DNA of 17,535 nucleotides from a virus. Location: the UHGV virus genome UHGV-0122804; one strand, 5' to 3'. The translations under genes were made by a program, and so were the position numbers. The stretch's first letter is position 1; each line of letters begins with the position of its first letter. Positions 4,737-15,618 of the stretch are shown in pieces. A model generated the notes under the pieces. The model made no database searches. It saw only the letters and a program-made list of their open reading frames with translations, and had not been told where the DNA came from.

Positions 4737-4866
4737 TTTTATGGGTGGCTTCCTTATCGGCTTCGGCATCTGTCGTGATTTAATTAAGCAGGAACTTAAA
4801 ACCAAAACACTGTGCATCGGAAAGCGTGTGTATCGGGTAGTTCATGAAACAAAGGTGAAAAAATGA
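4714..4866 (+). CDS. small predicted membrane protein (50 aa), absent from the supplied ORF track
   Basis: ATG preceded by aggag (4701-4705). Hydrophobic N-terminus ISLAFMGGFLIGFGIC. Stop TGA overlaps the ATG of the next ORF (4863). Confidence 0.45.
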   Translation: MIPYISLAFMGGFLIGFGICRDLIKQELKTKTLCIGKRVYRVVHETKVKK

Positions 4867-5162: not shown

Positions 5163-5200
5163 GATAAGTATTTACTTACTTATCTTTTGTGTATAAGATG
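5163..5200 (+). promoter_or_regulatory. Motif A copy 2: GATAAGTA-N6-TACTTATC then TTTTGTG and TATAAG, at the head of the 760-bp non-coding region
   Basis: gataagta (5163-5170) and tacttatc (5177-5184) are exact reverse complements. -10-like TATAAG at 5192-5197. Confidence 0.5.
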
Positions 5201-5548
5201 ACTTTGTTTTCGTTGAGACGCGACTGTTTGAACTTAAATACAAGTGCAAACGAAGAAGTCTATCTGGCAGTAGCCTAATAAGCCAAACACCAGCGAGGTC
5301 AGTTTCCAGCCTCGTTACCGAAATGGGACACACTGAGCGAGTGTGATTGCAAAACGCAGGTAGGGCATCTGGTTAACCAGTGCCCTTACCAATGAGGTAA
5401 CAGAATGGGCGGTTGGGTTTTATGTCCAACACATCCCGGCTCCCAAAGGCCCGACCGTCTATCCTGTTACGTCATTTCTGTTACTTATGTCGTTTAGTTT
5501 TGGGTTAAAAATGGCGACGTAACCCGGCTGGTTAGGTGAGCCAGCACG

Positions 5549-5641
5549 CAACGTTGAGACCACTGGTTTTTGCATCACAGGGGCAGAACCGGCAGACATG
5601 TAGGGCCAAGTACATTAATCCGTTCAGTGGTCTCAACGTTG
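5549..5641 (+). other. Perfect 17-bp inverted repeat enclosing a 59-nt loop
   Basis: caacgttgagaccactg (5549-5565) is the exact reverse complement of cagtggtctcaacgttg (5625-5641). Confidence 0.6.
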
Positions 5642-5705
5642 TGGTCACGGATTCATTATCCTTCTGGTTATAGCCATTGTTGTCACTGCCCCGTGGCCAC
5701 AACGA

Positions 5706-5733
5706 TTAAATGATTCCATACATCTAATTAGAT
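5706..5733 (+). repeat. Motif B copy 2 (TTAAATGATTCCATACATCTAATTAGAT) in non-coding DNA
   Basis: Shares about 26 nt with copy 1. Followed by the perfect palindrome atctaattagat (5722-5733). Would encode only MIPYI-stop. Confidence 0.7.
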
Positions 5734-5913
5734 CTGAATGAAAACTCTCCTCAACTCTCGGAGAATATTTGAAGATCTTGGCTTGTAAGCGTTTGGTGAA
5801 CACGTAAAGCACAAGTGGCAGGAAACGGTAGGACTGCTGCGAACGACACCGGTGAATCGGCGATACAGCCCCACAAGTCCGTGAATCGACAGAGGCTGAC
5901 GGTGTCAACCTTA

Positions 5914-5988
5914 GATGGTGTAGCTCAGTGGTAGAGCGGTTGACTGTTAATCAACTGGTCGGTGGTTCGAATCCACCCACCATCGCCA
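5914..5988 (+). tRNA. tRNA-Asn (anticodon GUU), 3' CCA encoded
   Basis: Hand-folded cloverleaf: acceptor GATGGTG/CACCATC, D stem GCTC/GAGC, anticodon stem GTTGA/TCAAC with loop CTGTTAA, T stem GGTGG/CCACC with loop TTCGAAT, discriminator G then CCA. Differs from E. coli tRNA-Asn as I recall it. Confidence 0.93.
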
Positions 5989-15414: not shown

Positions 15415-15618
15415 GTGCGTAAAGGATGTTTCGGCTCTCTTATCGCTGCTTCTGAAACTGGTAAGGCTTGTCTGGTGTGTCCAGACAAGCCCGATTGTCA
15501 CCAATCAGCAAAAGAAGTTGCGATTTCGATGCATGGGAAGTTCGTAGGCTTCCCCAATGACAAAATCAAAAAAACCAGAAAGGTAAAAACACATGAAGGC
15601 ACTGATGGTTCGAACTGA
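15415..15618 (+). CDS. hypothetical small Cys-rich protein (67 aa), GTG start; overlaps the dnaE start by 26 nt
   Basis: CLVCPDKPDCH cluster. Doubtful as a real gene because of the overlap with dnaE and the non-ATG start. Confidence 0.3.
   Translation: MRKGCFGSLIAASETGKACLVCPDKPDCHQSAKEVAISMHGKFVGFPNDKIKKTRKVKTHEGTDGSN

Follow-up and report, generated by a model that had tools for sequence, protein, structure and literature searches.

A dispersed palindrome of SSU5/pHCM2-type phage-plasmids as a probable operator for a phage-encoded repressor

The locus at 5163-5200 carries a palindrome followed by a -10-like box, and the question is whether this palindrome is part of a promoter or a site at which a regulator acts on promoters. 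In the initial annotation it was one of several similar motifs, each an inverted repeat with a 6-nt spacer followed by CTTTyTGTG and a -10-like box. The window, meaning the whole stretch of 17,535 nt that was analysed, belongs to an E. coli phage-plasmid of the SSU5/pHCM2 type. Such phage-plasmids are very common in clinical Enterobacteriaceae, and carriage of antibiotic resistance genes has been reported for the family. The window is matched by 848 PLSDB records, Yersinia pestis and Salmonella plasmids among them. For comparison we used Cyrano and SSU5 (about 80% identical to each other) together with Kluyvera, Klebsiella and Salmonella relatives; a genome-contig search with the ligase protein yielded two Kluyvera loci only. 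No Rfam family matched 5200-5913, and a description of the motif was not found in full-text literature searches.

Copies of the palindrome in the window

When GATAAGTA-N6-TACTTATC was searched with at most three mismatches, the window gave three matches against 0.05 expected, and 0 of 200 dinucleotide shuffles reached three. The clear copies, A to C below, are thus real. They are listed with the two degenerate copies and with a sixth that the initial annotation had missed.

1810-1831, unstranded: palindrome copy A, AATAAGTA-GATGAT-TACTTATC, one mismatch, between the primase gene (stop at 1796) and the ORF at 1872-2648
5163-5184, unstranded: palindrome copy B, GATAAGTA-TTTACT-TACTTATC, perfect match; 18-mer core at 5165-5182, 16/18 against the family consensus
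8026-8047, unstranded: palindrome copy C, GATAGGTA-GATACA-TACTTATC, one mismatch, upstream of phoH (start at 8103)
14098-14119, unstranded: degenerate copy D, between the cobT-like and cobS-like genes; 18-mer at 14100-14117, TAAGTAACCACTTACGAT, 14/18
2681-2702, unstranded: degenerate copy E; 18-mer at 2683-2700, TAGGTAAGCACAAGATTA, 14/18, left half intact
11441-11458, unstranded: sixth copy, CTGGTAAGTGCTTACCGA, 15/18; core at 11443-11456, GGTAAGTGCTTACC

The inverted repeat with a 6-nt spacer was correctly described, but the true unit is a longer, full palindrome, and the family consensus is an 18-26 bp palindrome, (atga)TARGTAAGnnCTTACYTA(tcat). Symmetry extends past the core into ATGA/TCAT and then into A/T-rich flanks, and in the E. 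coli-type sites the two halves deviate independently of each other. Downstream of the clear copies, the + strand does carry a T-rich run, TGTG and then GAGAAT/GAATAC, TATAAG(AT) or TATAGT. CTTTyTGTG itself is present at the clear copies but is in part this symmetric T-rich flank and not a family-wide feature. At 14/18 or better against the family consensus, the window holds eight matches compared with 0.65 expected, or seven places when overlapping 4-nt shifts are counted once. One 14/18 match, at 4781-4798, falls within a coding gene and probably arose by chance.

Both degenerate copies proved to be family members, since each matches at 14/18 and their positions are kept in Cyrano and SSU5. 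At copy D, ATAAGTAAyCACTTAC and ATATATTTATATAAGA are kept in SSU5; the end of copy E is 3 nt from the start codon (2704), and its orthologous SSU5 site is at 39088. Copy A is kept in Cyrano, Kluyvera (locus L004) and SSU5, a palindrome lies at the same place at phoH in Kluyvera and three Klebsiella relatives, and the core of the copy at 11441-11458 is also the core of the best SSU5 site.

Placement on predicted promoters and across genomes

At copy B, the block TAAGTnTTTACTTA is invariant across seven related genomes. The palindrome there overlaps elements of a predicted promoter, which are given below with those of the other copies.

5171-5176, + strand: predicted -35 TTTACT of promoter B, which doubles as the palindrome's 6-nt "spacer" and is separated from TAAGAT by 17 bp
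5192-5199, + strand: predicted -10 box TATAAGAT of promoter B, hexamer TAAGAT at 5194-5199
1836-1844, + strand: extended -10-like box of promoter A, TGTGAGAAT, which reads TGTAAGAAT in relatives
8066-8071, + strand: predicted -10 TATAGT of the phoH promoter, conserved with the 5' leader, TATGGT in one genome
14135-14142: TATAAGAA box downstream of copy D

TTTACT at copy B is invariant in the E. coli, Salmonella, Kluyvera and Klebsiella relatives, and the -10 box is kept as TATAAGAT or, in Klebsiella, TATGAT, while 5-7 nt on each side vary. From TTTGTTTTCGTTGAGACG on, some 6-8 nt past TAAGAT, the sequence is strongly conserved again, and the predicted start at about 5205-5207 coincides with the onset of a strongly conserved non-coding block. 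Site B appears to be a promoter-overlapping copy. The earlier statement that these motifs do not fit a sigma70 spacing finds no support at 5163, where TTTACT-17 bp-TAAGAT fits and is kept in seven genomes.

The other copies are likewise accompanied by conserved -10-like boxes. In promoter A, GAGAAT (1839-1844) is directly preceded by TGT, and TTTCTGTAAGAATA is kept in Cyrano, Kluyvera and SSU5, with both flanks diverging. TATAAGA at site D, TATAGT at C and TGTAAGAAT at A are kept while adjacent bases vary, and the hexamers TAAGAT, GAGAAT and TATAGT, all with A2 and T6, are conserved in relatives. The -35 hexamers of the window are poorer (TTTACT 4/6, TAGATG 3/6 and TTATCT 3/6 against consensus), and a simple promoter scan called none. 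The gap between the palindrome and the conserved -10 is 8-11, 17, 20 or 21 nt; two promoters have the site on the other side, downstream of the -10. At phoH, the gap is 20 nt in three Klebsiella genomes despite sequence change and 11 nt in Kluyvera. In Cyrano, the box T[AG]TAAGA[AT] is intergenic in seven of its eight copies, four with the palindrome and three without it (parA, int and one more). The palindrome is a promoter add-on and not a required promoter part.

Genome-wide, 27 sites were found in Cyrano and 28 in SSU5, at orthologous positions; at 15/18 or better there are 22 in Cyrano (0.55 expected) and 25 in SSU5 (0.3 expected). Intergenic DNA makes up 13% of the Cyrano genome and holds 24 of its 27 sites, a non-random placement. 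That all copies head transcription units is not supported. About ten sites lie 2-18 nt before a start codon, a kind of gap in which many members of the family are found, and others lie between a stop codon and a terminator-like hairpin. For these short-gap and hairpin-side copies, a role as roadblock or operator seems likelier than one as promoter. At some copies upstream of such a hairpin or against a start codon, no promoter fits.

The family reaches very distant relatives. In viral contigs of 57-65% G+C, whose proteins are 25-55% identical to those of Cyrano and syntenic with them, TAAGTAAGnnCTTACTTA occurs in 3-7 copies per ~13 kb. Across 119 unique sites (238 orientations) of this high-GC set, the half-sites TAAGTAAG/CTTACTTA are 84-100% conserved per position, with the central 2 nt free. 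Considering that the 18-bp palindrome is invariant at 60% G+C, sequence-specific selection is needed to maintain it. Around these sites the sole TTG peak is at offset -7 and the sole TAnnnT peak at -2 (107/238 orientations), and 21 sites have the form cTTGnnn-N1-[16 nt palindrome]-TAnnnT, which is an optimal 17-bp promoter. The palindrome exactly fills the 17-bp spacer between cTTGnnn and TAnnnT, which again speaks against the lack of a sigma70 fit.

Promoters for a modified RNA polymerase, also suggested initially, find no support, since the annotations of Cyrano and SSU5 include neither an RNA polymerase nor a sigma factor, and the same -10 occurs at parA and int without the palindrome. A T4-late-like promoter (-10 only, TATAAATA-like) or one for a phage RNA polymerase is made less likely by the same lack of an annotated sigma factor or polymerase, and by the canonical -35 and -10 elements on either side of the site in relatives. 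That the sites form a family, where they lie and how they are conserved is shown computationally, and the earlier proposal of a co-regulated, promoter-linked set for a dimeric regulator is supported by the enrichment, the intergenic placement, the orthologous conservation in very distant relatives and the placement in complete promoters.

A candidate regulator and competing explanations

We consider it probable that the palindrome is an operator for a dimeric phage-encoded repressor, one of about 27 copies over a phage-plasmid of about 108 kb. The copies would coincide with the core of sigma70-type promoters that drive lytic-cycle genes. Copies A and B would straddle the -35 with a predicted centre near -31, and copies C and D and the holin site would be one helical turn further upstream, near -41. 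In distant relatives the -35/-10 spacer would be filled, and at the XRE and parB-like promoters the site would cover +1. Where a copy lies in a very short intergenic gap, the protein on it could be a roadblock. As long as the phage-plasmid is in its plasmid-prophage state, the regulator would occupy the sites and keep the replication, nucleotide-metabolism, structural and lysis units silent while limiting its own synthesis, and its loss would free all units at once. From these sequence patterns we infer protein binding, the sign of the regulation, the identity of the binder and all transcription starts. Repression is suggested by the high-GC sites, which lie within the spacer of promoters already near consensus. 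The parB-like promoter has TATAAT and the palindrome over its predicted +1, and coverage of +1 at the XRE and parB-like promoters, both good ones, is what one would expect of a repressor.

The regulator is most likely the 128-aa XRE protein encoded in the window, judging from the following features and their conservation.

11025-11411, - strand: XRE-family helix-turn-helix protein, 128 aa, leading candidate binder; Pfam HTH_19 is matched weakly (E 7.8e-4), short of the curated cutoff
11458-11485, - strand: predicted XRE promoter, -35 TTTACA (+ strand 11480-11485), 16-bp spacer, -10 TAATAT (11458-11463)

The copy at 11441-11458 lies over the predicted start of this - strand promoter, and CTTTACAACCCT...TGTAATATC(G/A)GTAAG(C/T)ACTTACCAGAGA is kept in all enterobacterial homologue loci examined. 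XRE homologues that are 56-100% identical also have a site upstream, and in the high-GC relatives the XRE gene is flanked by sites. The gene occurs in 865 PLSDB plasmids, whose hosts are distributed like those of the DNA family, and only the lytic isolate SSU5 lacks it. In the Cyrano lysogen, the protein is expressed and has been described as a putative master repressor (PMC9928086). Among the 15 lysogen-expressed or plasmid-maintenance genes (gene list from PMC9928086), the XRE gene is the only one with a site.

The recognition helix points in the same direction. In five lineages it begins with G-[YF]-[KE]-N-x-N and accompanies TAAG-type sites. An Acinetobacter relative has G-F-K-R-P-N together with TCAGTCAGnnCTGACTGA sites (19 matches compared with 2.1 in shuffles), several of them near the XRE gene, and the Asn-to-Arg change in the helix thus seems to accompany a TAAG-to-TCAG change in the operator. 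In the usual readout, Asn contacts adenine and Arg contacts guanine. The exchange of Asn for Arg along with A:T for C:G matches this readout and supports XRE as the binder; the co-variation is a single evolutionary event, statistically weak, in a lineage in which other proteins have diverged as well. SSU5 lacks XRE, yet its 28 sites match at least as well as those of Cyrano, so either a recent deletion or another binder is needed to account for it.

Other binders were considered and rejected. In unrelated low-GC viral contigs, regulators are encoded next to the same 18-mer (e.g., in the CI-like/Cro-like gap of contig L043), and these have no similarity to the XRE protein of the window. An FljA-like protein is encoded by Cyrano; none was detected in the distant loci, and the protein is more probably a host-flagellin moron. 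To our knowledge, none of the host-factor sites (Fur, NarL heptamers TACYYMT, TyrR, IHF, DnaA) agrees both in sequence and in layout, and the persistence of the palindrome in hosts of 41-65% G+C favours a phage factor over a host factor.

The sites could instead bind an activator, a phage dimer on the palindrome that recruits the host RNA polymerase to promoters with a poor -35 and so switches the lytic units on together, as P1 Lpa does at a -22 box, T4 MotA at -30 and class II activators at -41.5. The -35 hexamers of the window are indeed weak, which is also typical of activator-dependent promoters and counts against a repressor. The centres near -31 and -41 are one helical turn apart, and the 20-nt gap at phoH is conserved when its sequence is not; with a further predicted centre near -19.5 included, the centres remain about one turn apart, a phasing more typical of activators. 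In P1, which is also a phage-plasmid, a 9-bp inverted repeat with a -10 is found at 11 late promoters (PMC10695390). However, the position of the site relative to the promoter elements is not fixed (spacer, -31, -41, +1), the high-GC sites fill the spacer of promoters that already have a good -35 and -10 at 17 bp, and the same -10 type occurs at parA and int without a palindrome. SSU5 grows lytically without XRE, so XRE, at least, is not a required activator. Activation seems rather unlikely to us.

It is improbable that the palindromes are centromere-like or KorB-type loading sites of the two proteins with ParB N-terminal domains encoded upstream of the terminase genes, silencing or organising the genome. 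The sites of ParB and KorB are also palindromes, of 13-16 bp, and those of KorB are dispersed, 12 in number. The two adjacent ParB_N proteins are recognizable (Pfam E 3e-13 and 1e-8; PHROGs 723 and 930), and the palindrome directly upstream of their operon is kept in E. coli, Salmonella and the high-GC relatives. But their similarity to Spo0J/ParB/Noc is confined to the N-terminal domain, the region aligned with the Spo0J HTH has no conserved motif, and GERR is changed to GEHR. A separate small ParA has its own partner elsewhere, and the operator change in Acinetobacter tracks the recognition helix of XRE.

An action in RNA, as a terminating, processing or stabilising hairpin or as the target of an FljA-like translational repressor, has still to explain an A/U-rich stem with two G-C pairs in eight, and we regard it as quite improbable. 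The gaps that hold copies are indeed transcribed, and a copy often begins at the upstream stop codon or precedes a start codon by 2-18 nt; those in the window are followed by a T-run, and Cyrano encodes a Flag1_repress (FljA-family) protein (E 1e-80). Copies B and C also fold better than shuffles (z -4.5 and -2.6), but the energies are weak (-4.3, -10.3 and -8.0 kcal/mol), copy A folds no better than shuffles, and a terminator scan flagged no copy. Positions 3 and 16 co-vary (odds ratio 5.2, among sites that are phylogenetically non-independent), which could mean a hairpin or two operator subtypes. Against pairing, no more than 14 of 95 unique sites have Watson-Crick matches throughout the seven outer pairs, and G-U is not favoured on the transcribed strand (36, compared with 45 A-C and 62 other mismatches). 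The centre of the consensus is itself palindromic and leaves a 2-nt "loop", and in the high-GC relatives there is no T-run and the element lies upstream of the predicted start, as at sites A and B. An intrinsic terminator was rejected on the same grounds of weak energies, uncompensated mismatches, absent G-U strand bias and the missing T-run in distant relatives.

Finally, remnants of a mobile terminator-promoter cassette (like the T4-type promoter-early stem-loop), spread by recombination and with no dedicated binder, would account for the recurring arrangement in which a stop codon is followed by the palindrome, a GC hairpin and the next gene, and for the extended identical flanks (AGCTTGCAAG...CAAT) at several high-GC loci, but are very improbable, since orthologous positions across 25-55% protein identity (e.g., the gap between large terminase and portal genes, or upstream of the parB-like gene) speak for ancient fixed sites.

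Returning to the repressor, a more elaborate version is a tentative possibility that we would not expect to hold in full. Each lytic unit of these phage-plasmids of roughly 100 kb would be insulated by a compact cassette in which operator-promoter and upstream terminator overlap, and all cassettes would be locked by one small XRE repressor that serves as operator-bound protein and roadblock. Transcripts would begin within the terminator hairpin of the upstream unit and so escape termination. The Asn/Arg contact, reading A or C, would set immunity groups from Enterobacteria to Acinetobacter and high-GC proteobacteria.

If the repressor reading is true, it would provide a promoter and operator map of the whole phage-plasmid, and it would name a candidate for the master repressor and predict the 18-bp site that this protein reads. 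The specificity rule, Asn with TAAG and Arg with TCAG, would be simple to test, and induction, superinfection immunity between family members and engineered control would become directly testable. The lytic behaviour of SSU5 would then be explained by its missing repressor gene.

Comparison with known dispersed operators

The stoperators read by gp71 of mycobacteriophage L5 and by gp69 of Bxb1 are similar in that tens of dispersed copies occupy short intergenic gaps and some lie on promoters, and the 27-28 sites found here share this abundance. L5/Bxb1 sites also lie between genes of long operons, and all are read by a single immunity repressor. In contrast, those sites are 13 bp, asymmetric and orientation-dependent, whereas the present site is no one-way 13-mer but an 18-26 bp palindrome with symmetric flanks, and the repressor families are unrelated. 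Here, elongation blocking is a proposal.

P1 offers two parallels. As proposed here, the lytic units under C1 each have their own operator, which overlaps -35, -10 or start variously, and the repressor is autoregulated (P1 record). However, C1 operators are asymmetric 17-mers (ATTGCTCTAATAAATTT type), C1 is not of XRE type, and late genes are also under Lpa. The approximately 11 Lpa late promoters resemble the present ones in having an AAGT/ACTT inverted repeat near the -10 in place of a good -35. There the repeat is 9 bp, fixed at -22 and 4-5 bp from the -10, in contrast to the variable geometry, the 18 bp or more and the early-type genes found here. An Lpa-type late promoter was accordingly rejected, as the -22 boxes (AAGTGACTT) share AAGT/ACTT but the geometry differs and no Lpa homologue was detected by tblastn in Cyrano, SSU5 or the window (best E 0.29), a result that also speaks against the activator.

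KorA/KorB of the IncP plasmid RK2 and SPbeta MrpR with its repeated elements resemble the present case in that one or two repressors of the element itself act on 7-12 or more palindromic operators over a large replicon, with joint silencing (see PMC2665229, PMC10516654). The protein families and site sequences differ from those here, and a ParB-like role is unsupported by the Spo0J alignment. The operators of lambdoid XRE-family repressors (P22 c2, 18 bp; 434, 14 bp) are likewise dyad-symmetric sites for an HTH dimer, and one lies at the promoter of the repressor gene itself, in a region from which a small ORF diverges. The lambdoid phages have six operators in two clusters, compared with about 27 single sites here, and the candidate protein is without a peptidase (S24) domain. 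Several marks of XRE/Cro-CI operators are found in this family, namely a dyad in the 14-20 bp range with conserved half-sites, predicted overlap with the core promoter, a copy at the regulator's own predicted promoter and, from a single event, helix-linked specificity.

The palindrome family in the window and in related genomes

Judged from its sequence, the 17.5-kb window is part of an SSU5/pHCM2-type E. coli phage-plasmid, with 96-97% identity to Escherichia phages Cyrano and CMS-2020a and ~81% to Salmonella phage SSU5, and it is matched by 848 PLSDB plasmids from Klebsiella, Escherichia, Enterobacter, Yersinia and Salmonella.

Features of the window, in order
First block: DnaB-like helicase (end only), primase, two unknown genes, DNA ligase, three small ORFs
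5200-5913: non-coding stretch of ~700 nt between promoter B and tRNA-Asn
5914-5988: tRNA-Asn
6273-7862 (-): A+T-rich 529-aa ORF in the slot between tRNA-Asn and phoH
Following genes: phoH, gp49/66-family gene, glutaredoxin, integrase
11025-11411 (-): XRE-family regulator, after the integrase gene
Last block: CobT-like, CobS-like, DNA polymerase III alpha (start only)

The 529-aa ORF had no match in Pfam and is missing from Cyrano and SSU5; different genes fill its place in other relatives, and the slot looks like one for variable cargo or defence.

The initial annotation described a family of promoter/operator-like palindromes at the head of several transcription units. When the window was searched with GATAAGTA-N6-TACTTATC at three mismatches or fewer, matches were found only at 1810, 5163 and 8026 (sites A, B and C), against 0.05 expected, and no shuffle reached three, so the family is real. 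The flanks of these clear copies agree with the earlier description, and the two degenerate copies at 2683-2700 (site E) and 14100-14117 (site D) are family members, each with an intact left half and 14/18 agreement with the family consensus. All the copies listed earlier stood, but the list was incomplete, as a further copy lies at 11441-11458 (15/18) and others are found genome-wide. The element is the full palindrome TARGTAAGTRCTTACYTA, with symmetric flanks of ATGA/TCAT and A/T-rich sequence.

A genome-wide motif search, as the initial annotation had suggested, was carried out over the whole Cyrano and SSU5 genomes with cut-offs of 15/18 and 14/18. At 15/18 or better, Cyrano holds 22 sites (0.55 expected) and SSU5 25 (0.3 expected); at 14/18 or better with overlaps removed, the counts are 27 and 28, and the sites of the two phages occupy orthologous positions. 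Copies are non-random with respect to genes, 24 of the 27 Cyrano sites being intergenic in a genome with a 13% intergenic share. The motif contains stop codons in two of three frames per strand, which alone disfavours coding positions, but this predicts ~30% intergenic sites compared with the about 90% seen. The sites are spread over the entire genome. Some lie in the gap between the large terminase and portal genes, 3' of the major capsid gene, and 5' of the genes for major tail, tail fibre and holin. Others lie in regions for replication, recombination and nucleotide metabolism, or separate the UvsW operon from the divergent parB-like one.

Scanning IMG/VR with the exact pattern gave at least 120 stretches. 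About half of them resemble SSU5 in their DNA, and many others are contigs of 57-65% G+C without DNA similarity to SSU5, in which TAAGTAAGnnCTTACTTA occurs in 3-7 copies per ~13 kb. Proteins of these contigs (TerS, TerL, portal, capsid, tail, DnaB, primase, ligase, CobS/T, PolIII alpha, UvsW and ParB-like) are syntenic with those of Cyrano at 25-55% identity, and the palindrome keeps the same places, such as the TerL-portal gap and 5' of the parB-like gene. Considering that an A+T-rich 18-mer is invariant at 60% G+C in the same places, strong sequence-specific selection is indicated. By our reading of the sequences, the palindrome is real and functional.

The perfect 18-mer TAAGTAAGTACTTACTTA is also present, singly or paired, in unrelated low-GC viral contigs (L043:4460-4477; L036:2894-2958; L038:11625-11697). 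One copy lies between a Cro-like gene and a CI-like gene encoding a helix-turn-helix and an S24 peptidase-looking C-terminal part; these regulators have no sequence similarity to the window XRE protein.

Predicted promoter elements around the palindrome

Footprints were obtained by aligning the window with Cyrano, SSU5, Kluyvera and three Klebsiella relatives. At site B, an invariant block TAAGTnTTTACTTA is followed by 5-7 variable bases, TATAAGAT (TATGAT in Klebsiella), 4 variable bases and a long invariant block starting TTTGTTTTCGTTGAGACG. The best reading of this site is the following predicted promoter, which would drive the non-coding region and tRNA-Asn.

Predicted elements of promoter B
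5171-5176: predicted -35, TTTACT, which is the palindrome 'spacer', 17 bp from the -10
5194-5199: predicted -10, TAAGAT, with a predicted start near 5205

In the E. coli/Klebsiella comparison of site B (window 5163-5184), the alignment reads GA-TAAG-TATTTA-CTTA-CTTA-TC vs TAGG-TAAG-TATTTA-CTTA-TTAT; the palindrome of the Klebsiella relatives (L130-L132) is offset by 4 nt with the -35 TTTACT unmoved. The palindrome behaves like tandem TAAG/CTTA units, which can be gained or lost on either side. Downstream, strong conservation of the non-coding stretch sets in with its very first bases (TTTGTTTTCGTTGAGACGCGACTGTTTGAAC) among the E. coli, Salmonella, Kluyvera and Klebsiella relatives. An Rfam search of 5200-5913 returned no family at gathering score and only chance-level matches (E up to 1); the stretch probably represents either a long leader of the tRNA or a non-coding RNA that has yet to be described.

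At site A, TTTCTGTAAGAATA is kept while both flanks diverge, and its box is a predicted extended -10. Site C conserves TATAGT and the phoH leader, with a gap to the palindrome of 20 nt in three Klebsiella genomes despite varying sequence and of 11 nt in Kluyvera, and ATATATTTATATAAGA is conserved at site D. Based on these footprints, the -10-like boxes proposed earlier are real conserved elements. The accompanying claim that they do not fit canonical sigma70 spacing is not supported; the predicted promoters probably follow sigma70 geometry, with weak -35 hexamers.

In high-GC relatives, enrichment of TTG is confined to offset -7 relative to the palindrome, and that of TAnnnT to offset -2 (107 of 238 orientations). 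Twenty-one sites there read cTTG(CAA/ACT/AAA)-N1-(16 nt of palindrome)-TA(CAAT/TAAT/TGAT) and have the clear appearance of near-consensus promoters whose 17-bp spacer is the palindrome. The predicted palindrome centre is at -19.5 in this spacer class, near -31 at A and B, and near -41 at C, D and the holin site. At two good promoters the palindrome lies over the predicted +1, namely those of the parB-like operon (TATAAT then palindrome) and the XRE gene (TTTACA-16-TAATAT then palindrome, an arrangement kept across homologues that are 65-100% identical).

Of the 8 Cyrano copies of the box T[AG]TAAGA[AT], 7 are intergenic, and the box lies 36-74 nt 5' of genes, the non-coding-RNA copy excepted. 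Four promoters combine it with the palindrome, and three lack the palindrome (parA, int and one more), so the palindrome is an addition to these promoters and not one of their essential parts. The palindrome-free box, TATAAGAAT/TATAAGAAA, is found at window 9860-9868 upstream of the integrase gene, and at parA and one more gene (L001:29252, L001:41023 and L002:44307 on stretches of Cyrano).

DNA site, RNA hairpin and mode of regulation

Intrinsic terminators were rejected as a class after their defining features were tested and found lacking, and a terminator scan of the window left the palindromes uncalled. RNA folding of the window copies is weak (-4.3, -10.3 and -8.0 kcal/mol), that of copy A being no better than shuffles. 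Full Watson-Crick pairing across the seven outer positions is seen at only 14 of the 95 unique E. coli-type sites counted in orientation, and the transcribed strand shows no G-U preference (36 G-U vs 45 A-C pairs, with 62 further mismatches). In the high-GC group both 8-bp halves are invariant, the central two bases alone are free and no T-run follows. The uncompensated mismatches and the invariant halves with a free centre do not fit an RNA structure maintained by compensation; they agree with a protein dimer that reads a pair of half-sites in double-stranded DNA. Positions 3 and 16 (A/G and T/C) co-vary with an odds ratio of 5.2, counted over sites that lack phylogenetic independence; the existence of two operator subtypes would yield the same signal.

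For such a site, repression seems considerably more probable than activation. It is favoured by site positions that vary relative to promoter elements, +1 included, by the intrinsically near-consensus promoters of distant relatives, and by the T[AG]TAAGA[AT] promoters that do without the palindrome. When the genes listed as expressed in the Cyrano lysogen (PMC9928086) are pooled with repA and parA, 1 of the 15 (XRE only) has a site, compared with 25 of 110 other genes; this rarity is suggestive of repression, not significant. Activation, with the palindrome as an activator site, would suit two features, the weakness of the window's -35 hexamers and the phasing of the predicted centres by roughly one turn, and we hold it to be a distinctly less probable reading.

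Some copies do not look like promoters. About ten sites end 2-18 nt 5' of a start codon (e.g. copy E, 2683-2700), and several palindromes have a stop codon on one side and a GC-rich hairpin on the other (Cyrano 5444, 9019, 15530, 22449 and 67884). In such gaps the palindrome may act as a roadblock, like L5 repressor sites. A second possibility is a -10 that overlaps the end of the palindrome and sets the start within the hairpin 5' arm; transcripts arriving from upstream would then terminate, whereas new ones would escape. The conserved hairpin follows within 4-10 nt of the palindrome (L001:5444-5500, 9019-9075, 15530-15590 and 22449-22500; L002:17884-17945), with a T-run in some cases and compensatory changes between Cyrano and SSU5 in one; this layout also occurs in high-GC relatives.

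A candidate binding protein and known systems

If any protein binds the palindrome, we lean towards the XRE protein, a putative master repressor expressed in the Cyrano lysogen (PMC9928086). Its promoter has the core GGTAAGTGCTTACC, which is the core of the best SSU5 site, and its gene adjoins the integrase gene in 865 PLSDB plasmids, whose hosts are distributed as for the DNA family. High-GC relatives encode a homologue of 36% identity flanked by sites. Two ParB_N-domain proteins are also conserved, with a palindrome 5' of their operon, but their likeness to Spo0J, ParB and Noc does not extend past the N-terminal domain, they show no evident helix-turn-helix segment, and GEHR replaces the GERR motif. 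The XRE protein is the better candidate.

The recognition helix starts G-[YF]-[KE]-N-x-N in five lineages, all with TAAG-type sites (E. coli group, 65-70% identity group, Klebsiella pY9645, Klebsiella pFF979, two high-GC contigs); pY9645 has 7 sites (0.23 expected) and pFF979 12 (0.33 expected). The XRE protein of the Acinetobacter baumannii relative is closer overall (48% identity) but has the helix G-F-K-R-P-N, and its element carries a recurrent intergenic palindrome TCAGTCAGnnCTGACTGA (19 matches vs 2.1 in shuffles), several copies being around the XRE gene. Asn-adenine and Arg-guanine are common contacts, and the change of Asn to Arg with A:T to C:G agrees with them. This co-variation is the strongest argument for the XRE protein; as one evolutionary event, it is suggestive rather than proof. 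Absence of the XRE gene from the lytic isolate SSU5 also speaks for the protein, yet the 28 well-matching sites that SSU5 retains are awkward; they call for a recent loss of the gene, which would suit the lytic behaviour of SSU5, or else for selection that acts on the promoters as such.

The Acinetobacter relative (plasmid NZ_CP156934.1, 64483-104758; 107 kb) also has an Hfq-annotated protein beside DnaB. In the window, the gap between the XRE gene and a divergent 70-aa ORF (11412-11661) holds several further repeats.

Repeats in the gap
11414/11477: inverted repeats TTACAACC/GGTTGTAA
On both sides of the XRE operator: inverted repeats AACCTTTG/CAAAGGTT
11501-11519: second degenerate palindrome copy
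11562, 11628: extra half-sites GGTAAG/CTTACC
11584-11625: two 21-nt direct repeats

Elsewhere, a full-length homologue of FljA, the phase-1 flagellin repressor, (Pfam Flag1_repress, E 1e-80) is encoded in Cyrano (L003:780-1301 (-)) and SSU5 (96897-97343), which suggests control of host flagellin by the element. Upstream of the gp32-like SSB gene of Cyrano (L002:2680-2765), a long near-invariant leader, CTCGAAAGAGCCACGAAT...GCCCAACGCGCATAGCGCCA, stands between palindrome and gene and may be a translational operator as in T4 gene 32. The words CTACAGTGGATA and ACAATTTGTT each have 8 intergenic copies and none in genes; copies of the first (CAGTGGATA) are near repA (Cyrano L002:10500-12400) and are probably iterons.

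Taken together, the main idea of the initial annotation, a co-regulated promoter set, holds, with the sigma70 fit, the length of the palindrome and the size of the family corrected. For a phage-plasmid family that is clinically widespread, the analysis yields a regulon that can be tested, a candidate for the master repressor and a rule for specificity. No description of the palindrome turned up in full-text literature searches. The P1 Lpa late-promoter class was rejected, its defining features having been tested and found lacking, and a search for an Lpa homologue found none. In its working, the system comes closest to the sets of operators scattered over temperate phages and large plasmids, among them those of KorA/KorB of RK2 and MrpR of SPbeta. 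It shares many intergenic copies with the L5/Bxb1 stoperators, whose sites are however asymmetric, and with the C1 operators of P1 it shares the phage-plasmid setting and one operator per lytic unit, although C1 sites are asymmetric and read by another protein.
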